DNA from: a bacterium
GTDB taxonomy: Bacteria > Patescibacteriota > Minisyncoccia > Phycocordibacterales > UBA6899
NCBI GenBank assembly: GCA_043756865.1
Contig: JAYUQG010000019.1
Span: 101,467-165,466, forward strand
Reading direction: 5' to 3'
DNA: 64,000 bases
Positions 3,818 to 38,073 of this stretch are shown here, piece after piece. The notes beneath the pieces were generated by a model that was not told where the DNA came from, searched no databases, and was given only the letters and a program-made list of their open reading frames with translations. A program made the translations under genes and the position numbers. The first letter of the stretch is position 1, and each line of letters starts with the position of its first letter.

Positions 3818-5017
3818 ATGCCCACAAAACAGCTTGCATTGGGGATTGGTGGAATCATCGTGGTGGCTATTATCGGATGGATTGTATTTGCTCCCAAAGA
3901 AACGGTAGCACCTGTGATTAGTGACGGCACCACTCCTATTGTCGAAGAACAACCACCAGAAGTACCCGTAACGCCATCTGCACCTACACCAAGCACGCCC
4001 GCAGGAGCAAATTCGGGCACTCCCACTCCTGTTGCAAATACTCCCACACCACTCAAAGGCAGCATGGCTCCAGAGTTTAAATTACCCTCCGGGTACACCA
4101 ATGCTGATCCATTTTTGATGCAAAGCCTAATTGGAAAGCAGGTTGTACTTGTACAATTCTGGGCGTACACGTCGGTGAATTCCATGCGCACTTTCCCATA
4201 TGTTAATCAATGGAACGAAAAATACAAACGCAAAGGACTGACCATTGTTTCTGTTCACACTCCACGATTCTCTTTCGAGAAACAAAAAGACAATGTTGAC
4301 AAAGCCGCCTTCACAAGCAACATCCTCAATCCCATTGTACTAGACAATCAATATGGCACATGGGACTCGTGGGGCAACAAACACTGGCCGACTATGTACT
4401 TGGTCGACATCAACGGACGCATTGTGTACAGCCAGAAAGGAGAAGGTAACTACGCAGCCACAGAAGCGAAAATTCAGGAGCTGCTCGTCGCACGCGCAGC
4501 AAAACTAGGTACCACCAAAGACGTGTATGCACCGTTCGAGATTCCCGGAGGAGTGCAGCCCATTGACCCCCTACTCGTCCGAAGTGCAGAAACATACTTC
4601 GGTTCTGCGCGTAACACCACTCTCGCAAACGGCACACAACTCACCGTTGGAATTCAGTACATGAAGCCTATTACTGAAATCAAACCCAATATGCTCTACC
4701 TCAAGGGAGTCTGGGACATTCAGGGTGAATATGCACGCAGTTCAACCGAGGGGTCTGGTTTCATACATCGCTATAACGCAAAGAATGCATACCTCATTTT
4801 GGGTGCGAGCGGTATAAACAAAGTGAAGGTAACACTCGATGGGAAACCACTTGGAGCTCAGGCAGGAAAAGACATCCGCGAGGAGAAAGGCGAGAGTTAC
4901 CTCTATGTATCCGACGAGCGCGTGTACGAGATTGTGAAGGGCTCAACGTACGGCGAGCACACACTCGAGGTCACCGCGGAGACCAATGCACTTCAAGTAT
5001 ACAGCCTCATGTTCTAG
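3818..5017 (+). CDS. Membrane-anchored thioredoxin-fold (TlpA/redoxin-like) protein with no cysteines (SxxS in place of CxxC) and a C-terminal extension domain
   Basis: LIGKQVVLVQFWAYTSVNSMRTFPYVNQWNEKYKRKGLTIVSVHTP...WPTMYLVDINGRIV has the redoxin-fold layout, but the CxxC position reads YTSVNS. The whole 399-aa protein contains no Cys. N-terminal TM helix followed by a Pro/Thr linker. Confidence 0.6.
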   Translation: MPTKQLALGIGGIIVVAIIGWIVFAPKETVAPVISDGTTPIVEEQPPEVPVTPSAPTPSTPAGANSGTPTPVANTPTPLKGSMAPEFKLPSGYTNADPFLMQSLIGKQVVLVQFWAYTSVNSMRTFPYVNQWNEKYKRKGLTIVSVHTPRFSFEKQKDNVDKAAFTSNILNPIVLDNQYGTWDSWGNKHWPTMYLVDINGRIVYSQKGEGNYAATEAKIQELLVARAAKLGTTKDVYAPFEIPGGVQPIDPLLVRSAETYFGSARNTTLANGTQLTVGIQYMKPITEIKPNMLYLKGVWDIQGEYARSSTEGSGFIHRYNAKNAYLILGASGINKVKVTLDGKPLGAQAGKDIREEKGESYLYVSDERVYEIVKGSTYGEHTLEVTAETNALQVYSLMF

Positions 5018-5024
5018 AGTTAGG

Positions 5025-5062
5025 ACACGCAAATAACCGCTTACAAGAGCGGTTATTTGCAT
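5025..5062 (+). terminator. Rho-independent terminator
   Basis: ataaccgc ttacaaga gcggttat followed by ttgc. Perfect 8-bp stem. Confidence 0.55.
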
Positions 5063-5095
5063 AACTCTATGAGCAATCAGTAGTATTTCAGCATG

Positions 5096-5210
5096 TGGCT
5101 TGTGTACTTCCCGCGCGAGGCGCCTACATCTAGTACGTAGCGCCCGAGATAGTGAGCCTTCGAGCGACAACGTCAAAAAGACAACGCCAGATAGCCGGTT
5201 TTTGTATTCT
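5096..5210 (+). ncRNA. Conserved intergenic element, copy A. Candidate structured RNA or 5' leader upstream of the DUF805 gene.
   Basis: About 110 nt sharing conserved blocks with 24177..24286: CCCGCGCGA(G/A)GCGCCT, AGT(G/A)AG(C/T)CTTCGAGCGACAA, and a (C/G)GG(T/C)TTTTTGT tail. A hairpin following GCGCCT carries a base change matched by a compensating change in the other copy. No ORF is conserved between the two copies. Confidence 0.3.
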
Positions 5211-5283
5211 ACAAACGCATTTGCACCTCCCACTCACCATGCTATGCTTTCGGAAGCGTTCCGTATATCAAAAGGAGAATCTC

Positions 5284-5673
5284 ATGCTCGATTGGATCAA
5301 AGCGTCCTATAGAGGACGTGTGGGAAGAAAGCACTTCGCCATGTTGTTAGTACTGCTTCTCTTGCTTACCATTGTTGCCATGCCGTTGCTTGGTGCACTC
5401 AAACACTTTGGGTTGTTCATTGGCGGGCTATTGTCCATCGTGTTTGGAGTAGTGTTTAACATCTTGACCCTACACATTTACGTGCGAAGACTGCACGACC
5501 TAGACCTGACTGGATGGCTCATACTGTTAACATTTGTTCCTGTGGTCGGACCATATGTTGGACTTGCTATGGCTGCCGGCTTGCTGTTCTGGCCGGGCGA
5601 TCGTGACGCGAACACATATGGCGCCCCGCCTAATGCAGATCGCACACTTCGTGACGTAGTGTTTCACCCTTGA
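5284..5673 (+). CDS. DUF805 (YhaI-like) family inner-membrane protein
   Basis: RRLHDLDLTGWLILLTFVPVVGPYVGLAMAAGLLFWPGD is the DUF805 hallmark (RRLHDxxxSGW). RBS aaaaggagaatctcATG. The N-terminus fits the family (YRGRVGRKHF). Confidence 0.7.
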   Translation: MLDWIKASYRGRVGRKHFAMLLVLLLLLTIVAMPLLGALKHFGLFIGGLLSIVFGVVFNILTLHIYVRRLHDLDLTGWLILLTFVPVVGPYVGLAMAAGLLFWPGDRDANTYGAPPNADRTLRDVVFHP

Positions 5674-5732: not shown

Positions 5733-6311
5733 ATGTCTACAGAACAATTGTCGGGATACGTCTCGGAAGAACGTGTGCGTGGCGTCACTGATGACGCAAT
5801 CAAAGCAGCATTACTCGAGAAAGGGTGGAAAGAAGCGGACGTCGTGGCAGCACTGGGCGTGGGAGGTGTCGGTGTTGGAGTATCTGCACATCAAGGTATG
5901 TGGAGTGGCCGCCTCGACAAAAGTGGTTATCTCAAAATCGTGCTATTAGGAGTCGGGTTTATCGCGCTTATCGTTGTAGCGGCTTTCGGTGTGGGATATA
6001 CCGCTTTTGATTATCAAGAAACCGATATAGCCAACGAAGGCACACTTTTCTATCTTGGAATATTCATTGGTGCATTGTTTTTTCTCGCGTACTCCATTGT
6101 CGGACTAGGCGCAGGAATTCGTCGACTCCACGACATCGGTCAGTCTGGGTGGTGGATATGCATTGGATTTATTCCATACTTGGGTAGCCTCCTTTCTCTC
6201 GCACTCACAATATACCTGTGCGTGAAAGACGGCGTACCCACGGCGAATCAGTGGGGTGGGGTACCAAGAAAAGACCTTACACTCTGGCAGTCATTGCGTG
6301 GCCGTGAATAA
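5733..6311 (+). CDS. Second DUF805 family membrane protein with an N-terminal soluble extension. The start is uncertain, with alternatives at 5697 (ATG) and 5682 (TTG).
   Basis: GIRRLHDIGQSGWWICIGFIPYLGSLLSLALTIYLCVKDGVP...WGGVP. A TAGAATATATA box sits directly 5' of the ATG at 5733. Confidence 0.65.
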   Translation: MSTEQLSGYVSEERVRGVTDDAIKAALLEKGWKEADVVAALGVGGVGVGVSAHQGMWSGRLDKSGYLKIVLLGVGFIALIVVAAFGVGYTAFDYQETDIANEGTLFYLGIFIGALFFLAYSIVGLGAGIRRLHDIGQSGWWICIGFIPYLGSLLSLALTIYLCVKDGVPTANQWGGVPRKDLTLWQSLRGRE

Positions 6312-6395: not shown

Positions 6396-6557
6396 GCGTT
6401 TATCGAGAGTACGGAGTAGGGAATTGGCCCGATGATACCGTCAGCAACCACCTCTGGAGAGGAGCGGTGCTAAATCCAATCCCTTATAGGGGAGATGAAT
6501 GTGGTTGGAGGAATAATGGCAACCAAAAAAGTCTTTCCCAAACGGAAGGCTTTTTTG
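6396..6557 (+). promoter_or_regulatory. SAM-I (S-box) riboswitch with a terminator-type expression platform, upstream of metK
   Basis: UUUAUCGAGAG..GGAGUAGGGAAUUGGCCCGAUGAUACC..CAGCAACC...GGUGCUAAAUCC...CCCUUAUAGGGG..GAUGAA matches the SAM-I conserved cores (GAGGGAnnGGCCCGAUGA, GCAACC, GGUGCUAAAUCC). P1 pairs UUUAUC with GAUGAA. Downstream hairpin gtctttcc..ggaaggc followed by ttttttg. A TGTTATAAT -10 lies about 20 nt upstream at 6371-6379. Confidence 0.75.
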
Positions 6558-6646: not shown

Positions 6647-7699
6647 ATGCAACGCATTCAGCAAACACACACTGTCGAGAGTGTGACCGCAGGTCATCCG
6701 GACAAAGTGTGTGACCAGATATCAGATGCCATTTTAGATGCATGCCTCACACAAGACCCGAAATCGAGAGTCGCCATTGAAAGTTTCGGTGCACACGGAC
6801 TGTTGGTTATTGGGGGCGAGCTCACGACTGACGCACGTATCGATGCATCAGCAATTGCGCGCAAAGTTTATCGCGACATCGGATACGACAACGAACTTGA
6901 AATCATCGAGCGCATTGTGACACAGTCTCCCGATATTGCGATGGGCGTGGACCAAGATGGTGCAGGCGATCAAGGTATTATGTATGGCTATGCCACAAAC
7001 GAAACTGAAGAATATCTCCCGCGTGGCATTACCCTTGTACACAAGCTTACAAAGGGACTCGAAGACTTACGGAAAAGCGGAAAAATTAACTGGCTGCGTC
7101 CTGATGGCAAGGCACAAGTGACCATTTCTGACGGCAAAGTCCGCACGGTGCTTGTGTCTACGCAACATGCTGATGGCATACAGCATAGCGAAATCCGAGA
7201 AGCCATCATCGACGAACTCATCCGGCCTATTATTGGCGACATTGGGCGCACCGAAATACTCGTGAACCCCACAGGACGCTTCGTGCAAGGCGGATTTGAG
7301 GCTGACACTGGGCTCACGGGGCGCAAGCTGATGGTAGATACCTACGGCGGACTCATAGCGCACGGTGGAGGGGCATTTTCGGGCAAAGACGCAACCAAGG
7401 TAGACCGCTCGGGTGCATACATGTGCCGCTATGTAGCGAAAAATCTCGTGGCAAACAAACTCGCGAAGGAAGCGACCGTGTCAGTTGCCTACGCCATCGG
7501 GCACCCCGAACCGCTCATGGTCGCAGCGGTTGACGAGAATGGTGAGGACCTCTTCGATGTTGTGCGCAATCGGTTTGACTTTCGTCCCAAGTCCATCATT
7601 CAGCAACTCGATTTGCGAAAACCTATTTTCGCACAAACAGCGGCTTACGGTCACTTCGGAAAGGCAGGCTTACCTTGGGAAACCGTTATACAAATATAA
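6647..7699 (+). CDS. metK: S-adenosylmethionine synthetase
   Basis: ESVTAGHPDKVCDQISDAILDACL, GDQGIMYGYATNETEEYLP, LVNPTGRFVQGGFEADTGLTGRKLMVDTYGG, HGGGAFSGKDATKVDRSGAYMCRYVAKN. Confidence 0.92.
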   Translation: MQRIQQTHTVESVTAGHPDKVCDQISDAILDACLTQDPKSRVAIESFGAHGLLVIGGELTTDARIDASAIARKVYRDIGYDNELEIIERIVTQSPDIAMGVDQDGAGDQGIMYGYATNETEEYLPRGITLVHKLTKGLEDLRKSGKINWLRPDGKAQVTISDGKVRTVLVSTQHADGIQHSEIREAIIDELIRPIIGDIGRTEILVNPTGRFVQGGFEADTGLTGRKLMVDTYGGLIAHGGGAFSGKDATKVDRSGAYMCRYVAKNLVANKLAKEATVSVAYAIGHPEPLMVAAVDENGEDLFDVVRNRFDFRPKSIIQQLDLRKPIFAQTAAYGHFGKAGLPWETVIQI

Positions 7700-7829: not shown

Positions 7830-7871
7830 TGCTCTAGATTTTGCAGAAGAAAAGAATTTTGCAGAAGAAAA

Positions 7872-7893
7872 GACCCGCGCACGCGGGTCTTTT
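7872..7893. terminator. Bidirectional rho-independent terminator between metK and the convergent membrane-protein gene
   Basis: gacccgcg cac cgcgggtc followed by tttt. Perfect 8-bp stem, preceded by a duplicated ttgcagaagaaaaga motif. Confidence 0.7.
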
Positions 7894-23867: not shown

Positions 23868-24104
23868 TTAGCCTTGGTTGCGAGCTCTACTTTCTTTGGG
23901 CGGCTTCTGTCTTCCCGCAATGCGCTTTGCCCAGTCGGCGAATTCACGAGCGCTGGTGTTCTGCGCGTTAGTGCTTGCGCCTTCTGCAAAGACCACTTGG
24001 ACGGGGTGCCCCTGCGCGTTTTGAGACAAACTGACGATGGTTCGCGTCGTGTTCTTCTTGTGACCCTCATACGATTTGCCTGTTTCGAGTTCAGTTACCT
24101 TCAT
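23868..24104 (-). CDS. Small hypothetical protein (78 aa) with a basic C-terminus
   Basis: ATG at 24104 preceded by gaaaggtagaac. No TM segment. No recognisable domain. Confidence 0.4.
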   Translation of the reverse strand: MKVTELETGKSYEGHKKNTTRTIVSLSQNAQGHPVQVVFAEGASTNAQNTSAREFADWAKRIAGRQKPPKESRARNQG

Positions 24105-24176
24105 GTTCTACCTTTCAGTGAATACCAGTTTGCTACGATAACTCAAAAATGTTTTCTGCACAAGGTTAAGTAAGTA

Positions 24177-24286
24177 TGGTGGCTCAATCAATACCCGCGC
24201 GAAGCGCCTGCATTGGCGCGCAGTGCAGGAAAGTAAGTCTTCGAGCGACAAATGCCAAATAGTGGGGCTTTTTGTTTGTTTATACT
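24177..24286 (+). ncRNA. Conserved intergenic element, copy B, homologous to 5096..5210
   Basis: tggtggctcaatcaataCCCGCGCGAAGCGCCTgcattggcgcgcagtgcaggaaAGTAAGTCTTCGAGCGACAAatgccaaatagtGGGGCTTTTTGTttgtttatac. Lies between two small minus-strand genes, so its functional strand is unresolved. Confidence 0.3.
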
Positions 24287-24318
24287 TTTTATCCTGCAAA
24301 TTCACGTACAAAGAAGTT

Positions 24319-24347
24319 CAGCCCACGAAACCTTGGTTTCGTGGGCT
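24319..24347. terminator. Strong hairpin. Likely terminator of the minus-strand 35-codon ORF or 3' end of element B.
   Basis: cagcccacgaaacc ttgg ggtttcgtgggctg: 12-14-bp perfect stem. On the minus strand it is followed by the U-rich tract aacttctttg. Confidence 0.55.
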
Positions 24348-24366
24348 GTATTGTCGGGGGAGATGT

Positions 24367-24474
24367 TCACTCGCCCCGCAGGTGTTCGTCAGCGTTGCCG
24401 AAGACGATGCGGCCGATGCCCATAAAGCAGAGCAAGAGGGCGGTCATGAAGAAATCCTCGATTACTTTGGTCAT
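24367..24474 (-). CDS. Small hydrophobic peptide of 35 aa, below the ORF-track length cutoff
   Basis: MTKVIEDFFMTALLLCFMGIGRIVFGNADEHLRGE. Strong SD gaaggagctgaaATG with 6-nt spacing. Its own near-consensus promoter lies upstream and the hairpin lies downstream. Confidence 0.5.
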   Translation of the reverse strand: MTKVIEDFFMTALLLCFMGIGRIVFGNADEHLRGE

Positions 24475-24511
24475 TTCAGCTCCTTCGGGTTGATGAACGA
24501 ATTACGTTTTT

Positions 24512-24558
24512 ATTATAGCATGTTCACAACTTATTGTAAATAGCTTCATTATTTACAA
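24512..24558 (-). promoter_or_regulatory. Sigma70-type promoter on the minus strand (TTACAA, 16-nt spacer, extended TGCTATAAT) with a perfect 9-bp inverted repeat overlapping the -35
   Basis: Plus-strand ttgtaaata gcttcat tatttacaa at 24534-24558. The minus-strand reading is ttacaa-N16-tgctataat at 24539..24512. Drives the 35-codon ORF. Confidence 0.5.
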
Positions 24559-24573
24559 TTGTTGATAAAAGAA

Positions 24574-24600
24574 AAAGCCCCAAGGGGCATTTGTTTTTGA
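24574..24600. terminator. Terminator-like hairpin with a T-run
   Basis: aaaaagcccc aa ggggcatttgttttt. Confidence 0.45.
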
Positions 24601-24608
24601 GAGAAGGG

Positions 24609-24818
24609 TCAGTCTTGTCGTAAGTCGTACCAGAACCAGATCGACACGATGACTGCCGAAATTCCTGAGAGGTACAGGTACCACCGAAATTCGGTCCAGA
24701 GTATGTACACCGCACTCCCAGCGAGTGCGAGCGTGCACATGAGCACCATGAGGCTTGTCAGCAACTCTACATACGGGTTGTGGCGGATCCATTCCGCCAA
24801 ATCATCTTTGCGGGACAT
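24609..24818 (-). CDS. Small membrane protein of 69 aa with two predicted TM helices
   Basis: LTSLMVLMCTLALAGSAVYILW and LYLSGISAVIVSIWFWY. RBS aggggtgtgccATG. Confidence 0.5.
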   Translation of the reverse strand: MSRKDDLAEWIRHNPYVELLTSLMVLMCTLALAGSAVYILWTEFRWYLYLSGISAVIVSIWFWYDLRQD

Positions 24819-24827
24819 GGCACACCC

Positions 24828-25025
24828 CTAGTTGTACGGCGTGTAATTGGGGTCGGACATCGCCCGCTTCGCGATGTTCTCGGCGTGATCGTCGAGCGTA
24901 CCGCCATGATCGGAATGCGTGTCCTTCTCTGGGAGCACCGGCGGCTTCCTGAAGTGGAAGTAGGCTGCCCCCGCAAGTAGGGCAATGAGTGCAATCATTC
25001 CCCACATGATGTAATGCGCGTTCAT
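24828..25025 (-). CDS. Small membrane protein of 65 aa with one TM helix
   Basis: MNAHYIMWGMIALIALLAGAAYFHF. RBS ggagaaaacATG. Tandem with the preceding small gene, with a 9-nt gap. Confidence 0.5.
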   Translation of the reverse strand: MNAHYIMWGMIALIALLAGAAYFHFRKPPVLPEKDTHSDHGGTLDDHAENIAKRAMSDPNYTPYN

Positions 25026-25233: not shown

Positions 25234-28125
25234 ATGAAGGAATACGACCCAAGCAAAATAGAAAAGAAGTGGCAGAAAGACTGGGGCACTATGGGTGCGT
25301 TTCGCACCACAGAAGACCCCACAAAGCCAAAGTGCTATGTACTCGACATGTTTCCGTACCCCTCCGGTGACGGCTTGCACGTTGGTCACCCGAAGGGATA
25401 CATCGCGACGGATGTGTACTCACGATACAAGCACATGATGGGTCACGACATTCTTCATCCCATGGGCTGGGATGCGTTTGGGCTACCCGCAGAGCAGTAT
25501 GCTATCAAGAACAAAGTGCATCCAAGAATTGCCGTTGAGAAAAATGTTGCGCGCTTCAAAGACCAACTTTCACATCTCGGATTCAACTACGATTGGTCAC
25601 GTGAAGTGAATACCACTGACCCGAGTTTCTATAAATGGACACAGTGGATTTTTAAACAGCTGTACAAAAAAGGCCTCGCGTACGAGAGCTTTGAGCCTAT
25701 CAATTGGTGCCCCGTCGACAAGACAGGACTTTCCAATGAAGACCTTGAAAATGGGAAGTGTGAACGGTGTGGTAGTCCTGTAGAAAAAAAAGCAATCCGA
25801 CAATGGGTGCTCAAGATTACTGCGTATGCAGACCGGATGCTTGCCGATTTAGATGGACTTAACTGGCCCGAGCATATCAAGGAGAGTCAGCGCAATTGGA
25901 TTGGCAAAAGTGAAGGCGCTGAAATTGAGTTTACACTTTCGGGATTTTCCGGACAGGACGACGGAACGCACAAGGTCAAAGTATTCACCACCCGTCCCGA
26001 TACGCTCTTCGGTGCAACCTACCTCGCTATTTCAGCAGAACTCGCACGCAAGTGGCTTTCCATCGGATGGGAAACCGCCGATGCAGTCAAAAACTTTGTC
26101 GCCGAGCTTGAGCAAGAAGAAAAAGACGGGGCATTTGATTTCAAAGAAGTCGCTCTGAAAAAAGGGATAGACACGGGAATAATCGCAACTAATCCCGCAA
26201 ATGGTGCGAAGATTCCTGTCTGGATTGCGAATTACGTCCTTTCTGGCTATGGCACTGGAGCAATCATGGCCGTACCCGCGCACGACGAACGCGACAATGA
26301 GTTTGCAGCAAAGTACGGAATCCCCATTATTGACGTCATTGCCAAGAAATACGTCGGGGAAGGTATACATGCCGAGCGGACAGGCGTAGAAACGGTTACC
26401 CGAAAGGTTGTAGATCCAATACTCCGAGACAAAGAGGGTAACTTTTATCTCATCAAGGAGGACGAGGCTCATGTGCATTTCGCGGGTGGGGGAATCGATG
26501 AGGGGGAGAGTGATATAGAAGCGGCGGGACGCGAGATAACCGAAGAAACAGGATTCACTGACTTTACCATCGCAAGAAAAGTTGCTCCCTCTATTGCGTG
26601 TTTTGGATACCGCCACACGAGAAACAGAAACCAGCGCTCGCTTGGCACGACCTATGAAGTGGTACTCAACTCCGATGCGCGAGTGCACTGCGAAGTTGAT
26701 GAAGGAAAACACGAGTTGATAAAAGTGCGGGGCGAGCACATGCTCAGCACCATCACTTGGCCGCACCACCAGTATCTCTTTGCACAGTACTTAGAGAACA
26801 GCCCAGCATACACGGGGAGCGGTATACTTTTTAACTCTGGAAAATTTGACGGCATGGAGAGCGAAGAAGCCAAAGCAGCGATTACTGAGTTTGTCGGAGG
26901 AAAGCTCGTCTCACAGTACCGTTTGAAAGAATGGGTGTTTGCGCGACAACGTTATTGGGGCGAACCGTTTCCTGTTGTCTTCGACAGTGCGCGCAAACCA
27001 TATATGGTTGCAGACAGTGAACTACCAGTTGTGCTTCCCAACGTTGAGAGCTACGAACCCACCGATACGGGGGAGAGTCCGCTTGCAAATATACGCGAGT
27101 GGGTGGAAGTATGCGGGTACATCAACGCCGATAACGAATTTGTTTCCTGTGACAAAAGCGATGCGCGGGCAAGCCGTTTTGAGCGTGAGACAAATACCAT
27201 GCCACAGTGGGCAGGTTCTTCGTGGTACTACCTCCGCTATATCGACCCGACCAACGCCACGGCACTCGTTGACAAGGAAAAGGAGCGCATGTGGTCGCCT
27301 GTGGATTTTTATGTCGGTGGTGCAGAGCATGCGACACGGCATCTTATCTACGCGCGGTTTTGGCATAAATTCCTTTTTGATATTGGTGTAGTGAATTACC
27401 CCGAGCCGTTCTTGCGTTTGCAAAACGTCGGGCTCATTATGGCAGACGATGGAAGGAAAATGTCGAAACGCTACGGTAATGTCATCAACCCCGACGACGT
27501 AGTCGCGACATACGGAGCAGACTCACTACGTGTCTACGAAATGTTTATGGGGCCCTTCGACCAGTCGATTGCTTGGTCGACAGACAACATGATAGGTGCG
27601 CGCCGATTTATCGAACGAGTATGGAGGTCAGCGCAGCGGGTTAGCGCAGATGCACCGCTTGTAAAAGAAACCGAACTCTTGCTCCACCAGACTATTAAGA
27701 AAGTGGGCGAGGACATAGAAAGCTTCAGTTTTAATACGGCGATATCCCAACTCATGATACTCCAGAATCATCTCGAGAAACTCGAGCAAATTCCGAAGGA
27801 AGCATATATGACGCTGCTCAAACTCTTCGCACCTTTCGCACCCCACGTCACTGATGAGCTGTGGTCGTCTCAAGGAGAAACGGAAATACTCTACAATACC
27901 GCATGGCCAGTATTTGATGCGGAGAAGATGGTTTCAGATACACTCACAATTGCAATCCAAGTGAATGGCAAGCTTCGAGATACGTTCACAATTGCATCCG
28001 GAACCGATGAAGAATCCGTGAAAAATACCGCACTTTCCCGACCGTCAGTTGCGAAGTGGTTGGAAGGAAAAGCTCCAAAAAAAGTCATTTACGTCGCAGG
28101 TAAAATAGTCAATATTGTGTTTTAA
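25234..28125 (+). CDS. leuS: Leucyl-tRNA synthetase carrying an inserted Nudix-hydrolase-like domain (about aa 375-530)
   Basis: N-terminal PYPSGDGLHVGHPKGYIATDVYSRY (HIGH region). Editing domain. C-terminal KMSKRYGNV (KMSKS). The insertion at nt 26350-26815 contains GGGIDEGESDIEAAGREITEETGF, a perfect GX5EX7REUXEEXGU Nudix box. 963 aa, compared with about 800-880 for typical bacterial LeuS. Confidence 0.9.
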   Translation: MKEYDPSKIEKKWQKDWGTMGAFRTTEDPTKPKCYVLDMFPYPSGDGLHVGHPKGYIATDVYSRYKHMMGHDILHPMGWDAFGLPAEQYAIKNKVHPRIAVEKNVARFKDQLSHLGFNYDWSREVNTTDPSFYKWTQWIFKQLYKKGLAYESFEPINWCPVDKTGLSNEDLENGKCERCGSPVEKKAIRQWVLKITAYADRMLADLDGLNWPEHIKESQRNWIGKSEGAEIEFTLSGFSGQDDGTHKVKVFTTRPDTLFGATYLAISAELARKWLSIGWETADAVKNFVAELEQEEKDGAFDFKEVALKKGIDTGIIATNPANGAKIPVWIANYVLSGYGTGAIMAVPAHDERDNEFAAKYGIPIIDVIAKKYVGEGIHAERTGVETVTRKVVDPILRDKEGNFYLIKEDEAHVHFAGGGIDEGESDIEAAGREITEETGFTDFTIARKVAPSIACFGYRHTRNRNQRSLGTTYEVVLNSDARVHCEVDEGKHELIKVRGEHMLSTITWPHHQYLFAQYLENSPAYTGSGILFNSGKFDGMESEEAKAAITEFVGGKLVSQYRLKEWVFARQRYWGEPFPVVFDSARKPYMVADSELPVVLPNVESYEPTDTGESPLANIREWVEVCGYINADNEFVSCDKSDARASRFERETNTMPQWAGSSWYYLRYIDPTNATALVDKEKERMWSPVDFYVGGAEHATRHLIYARFWHKFLFDIGVVNYPEPFLRLQNVGLIMADDGRKMSKRYGNVINPDDVVATYGADSLRVYEMFMGPFDQSIAWSTDNMIGARRFIERVWRSAQRVSADAPLVKETELLLHQTIKKVGEDIESFSFNTAISQLMILQNHLEKLEQIPKEAYMTLLKLFAPFAPHVTDELWSSQGETEILYNTAWPVFDAEKMVSDTLTIAIQVNGKLRDTFTIASGTDEESVKNTALSRPSVAKWLEGKAPKKVIYVAGKIVNIVF

Positions 28126-36873: not shown

Positions 36874-38073
36874 CTAGCCTTGAGTGCCGGACTTTGCCTT
36901 AAGTAGTGCAATTTCTTCTTTCAGCTCTATCATTTTGAGCTCTCGTCCCGTCATCATTTTGTTTAATTTTTCGAGTCCTTCTAGATATGCCGCAGCTTTT
37001 TTCTCAGCGAATTTTCTATCGCCGATATCTCGTATGTTGCATTGTATCATTTCTGTGCCATCAGTGAGCGGATAACGATTACTCACAAACTCAACCTGAT
37101 GTTCTAGGCCATCTTTTGACTTAATAGGGAGGTCGTCATAGCGTACATACCCTTTTGTCTGCAATTCCTCGAACATCATCTTGGCATACTTAATATCGGG
37201 AACCGCGCCGATTTCCCAGAGTTTTTTGCCAATTATTTCAGCTAGTGAGTATCCCATCAGTTCAAGTAAAAATGGGTTAGCGTCAACTATCTTTTCGGTT
37301 GCAGGGTCAATAAGCAGGACGCCATCTTTCGCGGTTTCAAAAAGTTTTCTATATTGTACTTCAGAAATAAGGAGCTTGCGTCGCACGCTTTCTTTCTCCT
37401 CCGCTGTTACTGCTAATTGTCGCGCGGTAGCCGCCAATTTGTTTCTCACGCTCTCTTTCTCCTTCGCAGCCGTCGCGAGTTTTCGGGCGGTAACTGCTAG
37501 CTTGCGTCGCACACTCTCTTTCTCGTCTGCAGTAGCCGCAAGTTTTTTTGCTTTAATATGCAGTTTTTCTGCGGTGATCGCAAGTTTGCGCCGCACACTC
37601 TCTTTTTCACCTGCCGTAACAGCAAGCTTGCGTGCAGTAACCGCAAGTTTGTTGCGCACACTCTCTTTTTCTCGAGCAGTGACGGCGAGTTGCCGTGCAG
37701 TAACGGCAAGTTTACGTCGCACGCTCTCTTTCTCCTTCGCTGTCACTGCAAGCTGTCGCGCGGTTACTGCAAGTTTACGTCGCACGCTCTCTTTCTCCTT
37801 CGCGGTCACTGCAAGCTGTCGTGCGGTTACGGCAAGTTTGTTGCGCACACTCTCTTTCTCCTTCGCGGTGACAACAAGTTTGCGTCGCACGCTCTCTTTC
37901 TCCTTCGCGGTCACTGCAAGCTGTCGTGCGGTTACGGCAAGTTTGTTGCGCACACTCTCTTTTCTCTTCGCGGTTACAACGAGCTTGCGTCGCACACTCT
38001 CTTTCTTCTCAGCTGTTACCTTGAGCTTGAGTGCGGTGCTATTTAAGGCCGTTGTGAAATTGTTTTTGTTCAT
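36874..38073 (-). CDS. Cytoplasmic protein with a tandem 21-aa repeat array (KEKESVRRKLAVTARQLAVTA, about 10 units), a PAS domain and a C-terminal coiled-coil signalling-type helix. No output domain.
   Basis: The repeat array covers aa 20-230. Then a PAS-like segment (LLIDPATEKIVDANPFLLELMGYSLAEIIGKKLWEIG). The C-terminus MTGRELKMIELKEEIALLK. Located between the ECF sigma gene and the HK gene. Confidence 0.7.
   Translation of the reverse strand: MNKNNFTTALNSTALKLKVTAEKKESVRRKLVVTAKRKESVRNKLAVTARQLAVTAKEKESVRRKLVVTAKEKESVRNKLAVTARQLAVTAKEKESVRRKLAVTARQLAVTAKEKESVRRKLAVTARQLAVTAREKESVRNKLAVTARKLAVTAGEKESVRRKLAITAEKLHIKAKKLAATADEKESVRRKLAVTARKLATAAKEKESVRNKLAATARQLAVTAEEKESVRRKLLISEVQYRKLFETAKDGVLLIDPATEKIVDANPFLLELMGYSLAEIIGKKLWEIGAVPDIKYAKMMFEELQTKGYVRYDDLPIKSKDGLEHQVEFVSNRYPLTDGTEMIQCNIRDIGDRKFAEKKAAAYLEGLEKLNKMMTGRELKMIELKEEIALLKAKSGTQG
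37375..38030 (-). repeat. Tandem 63-bp (and 42-bp variant) coding repeats of about 10 units
   Basis: cgcacgctctctttctccttcgcggtcactgcaagctgtcgtgcggttacggcaagtttgttg is reiterated with point variants. These generate the spurious plus-strand ORFs 37181..38122 and 37558..38046. Confidence 0.85.

Follow-up and report, generated by a model that had tools for sequence, protein, structure and literature searches.

The stretch of DNA analysed here, 64,000 nt of a single contig (the window), contains an intergenic element of about 110 nt that stands upstream of a tandem pair of DUF805 genes and has a second copy elsewhere in the window. Its position raises the question of whether it acts on the genes behind it, as a cis-regulatory leader or riboswitch, or is a unit in its own right. 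The initial annotation of the window leant towards the former, and offered an independently transcribed small RNA as the alternative. Comparison of the two copies with each other and with related loci points to the second kind of answer. It is firmly shown that the element is a real, conserved, non-coding one, and that it is restricted to one uncultured lineage. Our tentative reading, and the one that we prefer, is that it is an independent unit, probably belonging to a family of small RNA genes.

Two diverged copies in the window

Both copies are where the initial annotation had placed them, on the plus strand, with limits that go slightly beyond those it had given: 5090–5212 for copy A and 24173–24283 for copy B. 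A gapped alignment of the two gives 61 identities over 87 positions (70%), with a longest identical run of 13 nt. When copy A was compared by the Smith–Waterman method with all 250-nt tiles of both strands of the window, copy B scored 29, against a background maximum of 14 and mean of 8.8, so the similarity is far above chance. The other searches agree with the alignments, in that copy A is matched by nhmmer over 5090–5209 and by a covariance model over 5108–5172, and copy B is likewise recovered by both. Two blocks, block 1 (CCCGCGCGARGCGCCT; 5110–5125 and 24194–24209) and block 2 (CTTCGAGCGACAA; 5158–5170 and 24239–24251), have exact matches at these positions and nowhere else in the window. 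A longer consensus, AGTRAGYCYTCGAGCGAC, is also confined to copies A and B, although two matches were reached in 2 of 100 shuffles. No third copy was found in the 64-kb window, either with nhmmer --max or with a covariance model of the core (R1) run with its filters off. A row of weak covariance-model matches corresponds to a tandem array with a 63-nt unit (21 aa; 105 nt on another reading) at 37373–38037 on the minus strand, inside the ORF of a PAS-domain protein (36874–38073).

The layout of the element is best described for copy A. The GC-rich block 1 (CCCGCGCGAGGCGCCT, 5110–5125) includes at 5112–5120 the 5′ strand of a potential helix, P1, and is followed by a variable apical hairpin, P2 (CUAC/GUAG, 5124–5140), whose counterpart in copy B is CCUGCAUUG/CAGUGCAGG at 24207–24229. 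The best-conserved part comes next, at 5146–5196, and consists of the purine-rich GAGATAGTGAG, block 2, two tandem 14-nt units (GACAACGTCAAAAA, 5166–5179, and GACAACGCCAGATA, 5180–5193) and then GCC. In copy B the corresponding part (GGAAAGTAAGTCTTCGAGCGACAAATGCCAAATAG, 24228–24262) has a single unit. A run of T residues follows in each case, TTTTTGT at 5199–5205 after copy A and its counterpart at 24269–24281 after copy B.

The initial annotation had proposed a scan against Rfam to exclude known families, and neither copy turned out to belong to one. With Rfam 15 applied to the whole window at the gathering threshold, a SAM riboswitch at 6397–6501 was the single match; at E ≤ 10, the regions 5000–5320 and 24100–24400 gave only chance matches on the neighbouring terminator hairpins. 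The SAM-I riboswitch itself (RF00162, 57.4 bits, E 1.2e-10, plus strand) lies about 145 nt upstream of metK (6647–7699), which is an ordinary, known arrangement, and in the spacer after metK an 18-nt sequence (ATTTTGCAGAAGAAAAGA) is perfectly duplicated in tandem (7838–7873). Scans of the related loci L121, L123 and L039, described below, likewise gave no family for the element, and ARAGORN detected no relic of a tRNA or tmRNA. We also compared the element by eye with sigma-54 and ECF promoters, with the attC sites of integrons, with the CR-I box of RNase P (cf. AGGAAAGU in copy B) and with a guanidine-III-like sequence; the spacing or motifs that define these are missing, and none has an Rfam match here.

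The two copies lie on the same strand and 19 kb apart, as the attL and attR direct repeats bounding an integrated element would. We regard this as extremely improbable, since the interval contains housekeeping genes (metK, pyruvate kinase, PhoH, YchF, an ABC transporter, response regulators and a histidine kinase) and no integrase, the repeats have no long identical core at their 70% identity, and relatives carry single copies.

The element at the DUF805 locus and in relatives

Downstream of copy A are genes for two DUF805 proteins, at 5284–5673 and about 5733–6311. The first ATG (5284) is 73 nt beyond position 5210; the initial annotation had put the distance at 70 nt. Orthologues of the DUF805 gene were collected at 59–78% identity and their contigs were read; the organism's relatives derive from groundwater and similar metagenomes. 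Synteny extends to all orthologous loci, with first the thioredoxin-like gene, whose reading frame ends ...LQVYSLMF*, and its terminator hairpin, then the promoter, the 5′UTR and the DUF805 gene. In the window the thioredoxin-like gene occupies 3818–5017 and its intrinsic-terminator hairpin, symmetrical with perfect 13-nt arms, 5029–5060, 30 nt to the left of copy A; equivalent hairpins are present in the orthologous loci. An alignment of seven loci (A7) displays a −35 element TTGCAC/TTGCGT, a 16-nt spacer and an extended −10 element catgNTAnnCT, followed by a conserved 5′UTR of about 40 nt, AAGCGTTCCTCGATACACGAAAGGGAAT. The corresponding features of the window are TTGCAC, 16 nt, TG-n-TATGCT at 5221–5248 and a 5′UTR at 5255–5283, directly before the ATG at 5284, all of them on the plus strand and downstream of copy A. 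This arrangement places copy A outside the DUF805 mRNA that the conservation of promoter and 5′UTR predicts.

It follows that a leader or riboswitch of the DUF805 pair, as initially proposed, is a very improbable identity for the element. The first DUF805 gene does share the strand of copy A and begins a short way downstream, and in three of the six informative orthologous loci the element is present at some point of this intergenic region. However, the conserved promoter and 5′UTR intervene between element and gene, the element is missing from three orthologous loci (L035, L036 and L037) and inverted beyond the terminator in a fourth (L123), copy B has no gene downstream on its own strand, and neither covariation nor an Rfam match even at E ≤ 10 speaks for a structured leader. 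If the DUF805 genes do have a cis-regulatory element, their 5′UTR is the better candidate for it. In this 5′UTR (AAGCGTTCCTCGATACACGAAAGGGAAT; window, L034–L037, L121 and L123), UUCC can pair with the Shine–Dalgarno sequence GGAA/GGAG, so a hairpin that sequesters the ribosome-binding site may form.

Two of the related loci supplied homologues of the element. The first, at 336–413 on the plus strand of L121 (nhmmer E 1e-5 with the two-copy profile, 8e-14 with a four-copy HMM; L122 is identical to L121), lies where copy A does and points the same way. It is without the apical hairpin, which has been deleted, and its tandem 14-nt units, CAACGCCAGATAGC and CAGCGCCAGATAGC, match the GACAACGTCAAAAA and GACAACGCCAGATA pair of copy A. 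This copy abuts the −10 element, so that TAGCCA occupies the −35 position. The second homologue, at 172–245 on the minus strand of L123 (E 2e-7 and 2e-18, respectively), is intact and inverted; it follows the upstream gene's stop codon and precedes the terminator of that gene. On the promoter side of that terminator is a mirror arm and then ACAGATACC, which together resemble a forward copy with an internal deletion. As a result of the two inverted copies of block 1 (GACGCCGTGCGCACA ... TGTGCGCACGGCGTC), the terminator of the thioredoxin-like gene gains a 15-bp outer stem at 228–284 of L123, and the extended stem has a predicted energy of −59.8 kcal/mol (z −7.4). Neither homologue is followed by a T-run.

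The spacers of L035, L036 and L037, of 117–130 nt, contain no element and are filled entirely by terminator, promoter and 5′UTR. A matrix of DUF805 protein identities pairs the window with L034, L035 with P0006, L036 with L121 and L037 with L123. The closest pairs, L036/L121 (83% identity) and L037/L123 (87%), each comprise one locus with and one without the element, so presence and absence differ even between the nearest relatives. In all there are four distinct copies, three of which come from one preferentially sampled intergenic region.

The proximity of the element to the DUF805 promoter might also mean that its DNA is itself bound by a protein, as an upstream regulatory site or iteron-like array would be, with the tandem 14-nt units GCGACAACGCCAGATAG as candidate binding sites. 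We consider this distinctly unlikely, though not negligibly so. Conservation does reside in primary sequence and not in pairing, both copy A and the L121 copy carry the 14-nt units as direct repeats, and a unit of the latter itself provides the −35 position. The distance from the GATAGCC end to the DUF805 −10 element is 46 nt in the window, 25 nt in L123 and 4 nt in L121, and steps of 21 nt would preserve the helical face, although this spacing is drawn from three values. On the other hand, the intact L123 copy lies beyond the terminator and it is the promoter-proximal one that has decayed, copy B presents its opposite end to the neighbouring promoter, and the conserved part, some 45 nt long, lacks dyad symmetry. 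In the window the core shows no regulon-like recurrence, the motif being absent upstream of the other genes.

Copy B is in a quite unrelated setting, between the promoter of a divergent gene of 78 aa and the terminator of a convergent 35-aa ORF. The former is a predicted one (TTGTGC, 17 nt, TATCGT; 24135–24163, minus strand) and the latter is a hairpin at 24319–24348, 36 nt to the right of copy B. In L039, where the 78-aa protein is 79% identical, the homology to the window ends exactly at the −35 element, 10 nt from copy B, and a different non-coding unit takes the place of the copy. That unit, on the minus strand of L039 at 500–700, comprises a small hairpin, a strong terminator AAAAGCCCCCCTCCGAGGGGGCCTTTTGTTTT and a perfect DnaA-box-like TTATCCACA, along with TTGCGC, 16 nt, TATATT, which resembles a promoter; a 78-aa ORF called over it on the opposite strand looks spurious. 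The closest metagenomic relative, L083, has neither copy B nor the L039-type unit at this site. Between ychF and leuS the window has small ORFs of 78, 35, 69 and 65 aa (23868–25025, minus strand) with no Pfam domain above threshold, and L083 has a single ORF of 76 aa, which marks the region as variable.

More distant relatives lack the element as far as it was searched for. No copy was found by nhmmer, by a fuzzy pattern or by covariance model R1 in 80 metagenomic loci centred on LeuRS (1.17 Mb; LeuRS 34–78% identical). The leucyl-tRNA synthetase of the window (25234–28125, plus strand) contains an inserted NUDIX domain beside its editing domain (residues 391–481, Pfam E 2.8e-8), and the peptide ITWPHHQY, from the part with the insert, was among the patterns of the metagenome scan, so relatives may share the insertion. 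Among genome contigs the pattern GCGCGARGCGCC-N20-45-CTTCGAGCGAC had 32 matches, all in GC-rich unrelated taxa and several within a recurring coding motif; these are chance matches, since their similarity is limited to the pattern itself (nhmmer E ≥ 0.05). A stricter pattern had no match in metagenome contigs, and the first pattern had none in viral contigs. The 17-nt core GCGRCAACGCCAGMTAG matched viral contigs 14 times, with no similarity outside the pattern, and these matches too are attributed to chance.

For now, the main value of the comparison is a negative but useful one, namely that the association with DUF805 genes is positional and not regulatory. The element should therefore stay off lists of riboswitch candidates.

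Conservation of sequence, fold and arrangement

What the four copies have in common is primary sequence, mainly AGTRAGYCYTCGAGCGACAAYGCCAGATAG. The shared part comprises block 1, which is GC-rich, and most notably the 3′ half of the element, AGRAAWAGYRAGYCYTCGAGCGACAA(n)YGCCAGATAG. Pairwise local identities are 70% for A and B, 74% for A and L121, 78% for A and L123 and 80% for L121 and L123, and the remaining spacer sequence cannot be aligned between loci. Element copies from different genomes are 73–80% identical, whereas between these genomes identity at fourfold-degenerate sites in the neighbouring DUF805 gene is no more than 32–40%, which is saturation. The element is hence conserved above neutral expectation, as genes for trans-acting small RNAs are expected to be. 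Identity of the core in the face of saturated neutral sites implies either retention by selection or recent movement. A recent burst is unlikely, because A and B within one genome are as diverged as copies across genomes; this divergence argues for long-term retention and against a recent burst.

The conserved sequence does not appear to encode a protein. The initial annotation had stated that the copies share no reading frame, and this part needs correcting, as matched frames (A+1/B+2 and A−1/B−0) are open through both copies, on both strands. Its rejection of a coding repeat nevertheless stands: the frame pairs all score alike (48, 48, 46, 42 and 39), so there is no coding signal despite the open frames. 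That the element descends from a duplicated piece of a protein gene, or is a small ORF missed in annotation, is accordingly a highly improbable reading. The spacings of the blocks differ by 3 nt between the copies, and three copies share an in-frame TAG after ...SSDNAR, as a coding sequence might. However, A and B shift frame ahead of this TAG, a stop interrupts the frame of the L123 copy 12 codons before it, there is neither a start codon nor a Shine–Dalgarno sequence, and the differences are not concentrated at third positions. A concatenate of the six-frame peptides had no match at E ≤ 10 among 5.8 billion proteins.

The fold, in contrast to the sequence, shows no statistically supported conservation. 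Copies A and B can fold as an extended hairpin, with a basal P1 (CGC-G-CGARG / CUUCG-A-GCG), the variable apical P2 and, on the 3′ side, a purine-rich internal loop GAWAGURAG. Of the four copies, A and B alone form helix P1, and their single-sequence fold z-scores are weak (−0.8 and −2.4). The L121 copy folds in another basal register (z −2.8), and the L123 copy has no such hairpin (z +0.9 and +0.4 on the two strands). The matched base-pair change that had been noted in the hairpin after GCGCCT is real (CUAC/GUAG vs CUGC/GCAG), but the suggestion of covariation did not survive the addition of two homologues. In the four-copy alignment 77.1% of the cells of P1 and P2 are paired, against 75.0% after shuffling, and 127 of 500 shuffles did at least as well, a comparison that with four sequences has little power. 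A failure of further homologues to covary was the outcome that the initial annotation had itself named as refuting a structured RNA, and on those terms the structural claim fails. The element evidently tolerates inversion, loss of the apical hairpin and tandem duplication of the 14-nt unit.

Such rearrangements are what would be expected of a small dispersed repeat of the REP/BIME, BOX or ERIC type, or of a decayed MITE, a hairpin-prone module that spreads or is duplicated among spacers near terminators and has no dedicated function. This is possible but, in our judgement, unlikely. The layout of the former class, an imperfect palindrome that is intergenic, modular and found in either orientation, is seen here. 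All copies adjoin terminator hairpins, copies A and B and that of L121 can themselves form long imperfect hairpins, both orientations occur, the inverted pair of L123 flanks a terminator, and the family includes an internal deletion and tandem 14-nt units. The patchy presence among the closest pairs of relatives (L037 vs L123 and L036 vs L121) fits as well. Against this, the 64 kb hold only two copies and the 1.17 Mb of more distant relatives not one, no transposase was found among the window proteins scanned, and the similarity of 70% within one genome gives no sign of a recent burst. Retention beyond the saturation of neutral sites exceeds what an unselected repeat would be expected to show, and the copies have neither terminal inverted repeats nor a target duplication. 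As to a MITE or other IS-derived element in particular, an inverted-repeat search of the copies and their flanks returned only the internal hairpins and the neighbouring terminators, the flanks share no duplication, and two copies at 70% identity in 64 kb are not the several near-identical copies of such an element.

A possible small RNA family and its relation to known systems

A family of small RNA genes fits best with three features taken together: the sequence constraint over 30–45 nt, the independence from neighbouring genes and the existence of two old paralogues. The independence is illustrated by L123, where the intact copy is inverted across the terminator and the forward copy on the promoter side is internally deleted, and by copy B at its unrelated locus. 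On this reading A and B would be old paralogues of a lineage-specific non-coding element of about 75–110 nt, a self-contained unit housed in intergenic spacers beside terminators and promoters. Its function would be that of a small, independently transcribed regulatory RNA, in which the conserved stretch would stay unpaired and contact a target or a protein, the GC-rich hairpin being a replaceable structural module.

The direction of transcription that such a gene would have is less readily read from the copies. A plausible forward promoter, TTGCAT, 18 nt, TAGTAT, precedes copy A at 5057–5086 and is found at copy A alone. No promoter-like site is common to the copies on either strand, and a consensus scan turned up no such site close to A or, on the plus strand, ahead of B. 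The T-runs at the ends of A and B, the two copies that have them, are not preceded by good hairpins (−3.9 and −9.1 kcal/mol). On the opposite strand a strong terminator lies in the path of A and of the L121 and L123 copies, though not of copy B; there are −10-like hexamers on this strand, with no −35 element, and transcription from it would place the conserved stretch at the 5′ end. Thus, neither the forward- nor the reverse-strand picture fits all four copies.

In wider terms, the copies may represent an undescribed family of small regulatory RNAs, or of RNA or DNA modules that bind a protein, in an uncultured lineage with small genomes. Such a family would have been kept for longer than synonymous signal lasts, with a working part of 30–45 nt, and would still function when shifted, inverted or duplicated near terminators; we put this forward as a possibility, and with considerable doubt. 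Should the element indeed work as a small RNA or protein-binding module, it would rank among the very few regulatory non-coding elements defined in this poorly known lineage, and its conserved 30–45-nt core would offer a direct handle on targets or partners. The case also illustrates how the terminator-proximal spacers of compact genomes are rebuilt fast while a short core is preserved.

The position of copy A invites comparison with the DUF805 and DUF805b RNA motifs, which are reportedly candidate structured RNAs located upstream of DUF805 genes. The main text of Weinberg et al. 2017, to which these motifs are attributed, does not name them. Like them, the element is non-coding and upstream of a DUF805 gene. 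It differs in that neither copy has an Rfam 15 match at E ≤ 10, in that it lies upstream of the DUF805 promoter and not in the 5′UTR, and in that several orthologues are without it.

The dispersed intergenic repeats of other bacteria, such as REP/BIME and ERIC of enterobacteria and BOX and RUP of Streptococcus pneumoniae, offer a second comparison. The element resembles them in being about 100 nt long, intergenic and hairpin-prone, in occurring in either orientation beside terminators, in its modular build (tandem sub-units and inverted pairs) and in its patchy presence among relatives. It has no sequence similarity to any of them, and it differs in the very small number of copies in the sequence available and in having no terminal repeats. 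Repeats of the REP/BIME, BOX or ERIC type number tens to hundreds in a genome; the sequence read here amounts to 64 kb of the source genome and about 9 kb of close relatives. Its copies, moreover, are strongly diverged and yet have been kept past the saturation of neutral sites.

The closest parallel to the reading that we prefer is provided by OmrA/OmrB and the Qrr family, paralogous trans-acting bacterial sRNAs that combine a conserved unpaired region with variable stems. The present element differs from these in that no common promoter or intrinsic terminator was found and no sequence or covariance-model relation links it to any Rfam family, and it is known from sequence alone. Likewise, though, it has two diverged paralogues per genome, located in intergenic regions that bear no relation to each other, has a long conserved block beside a variable hairpin, is independent of the orientation of the flanking genes and is conserved beyond neutral sites.
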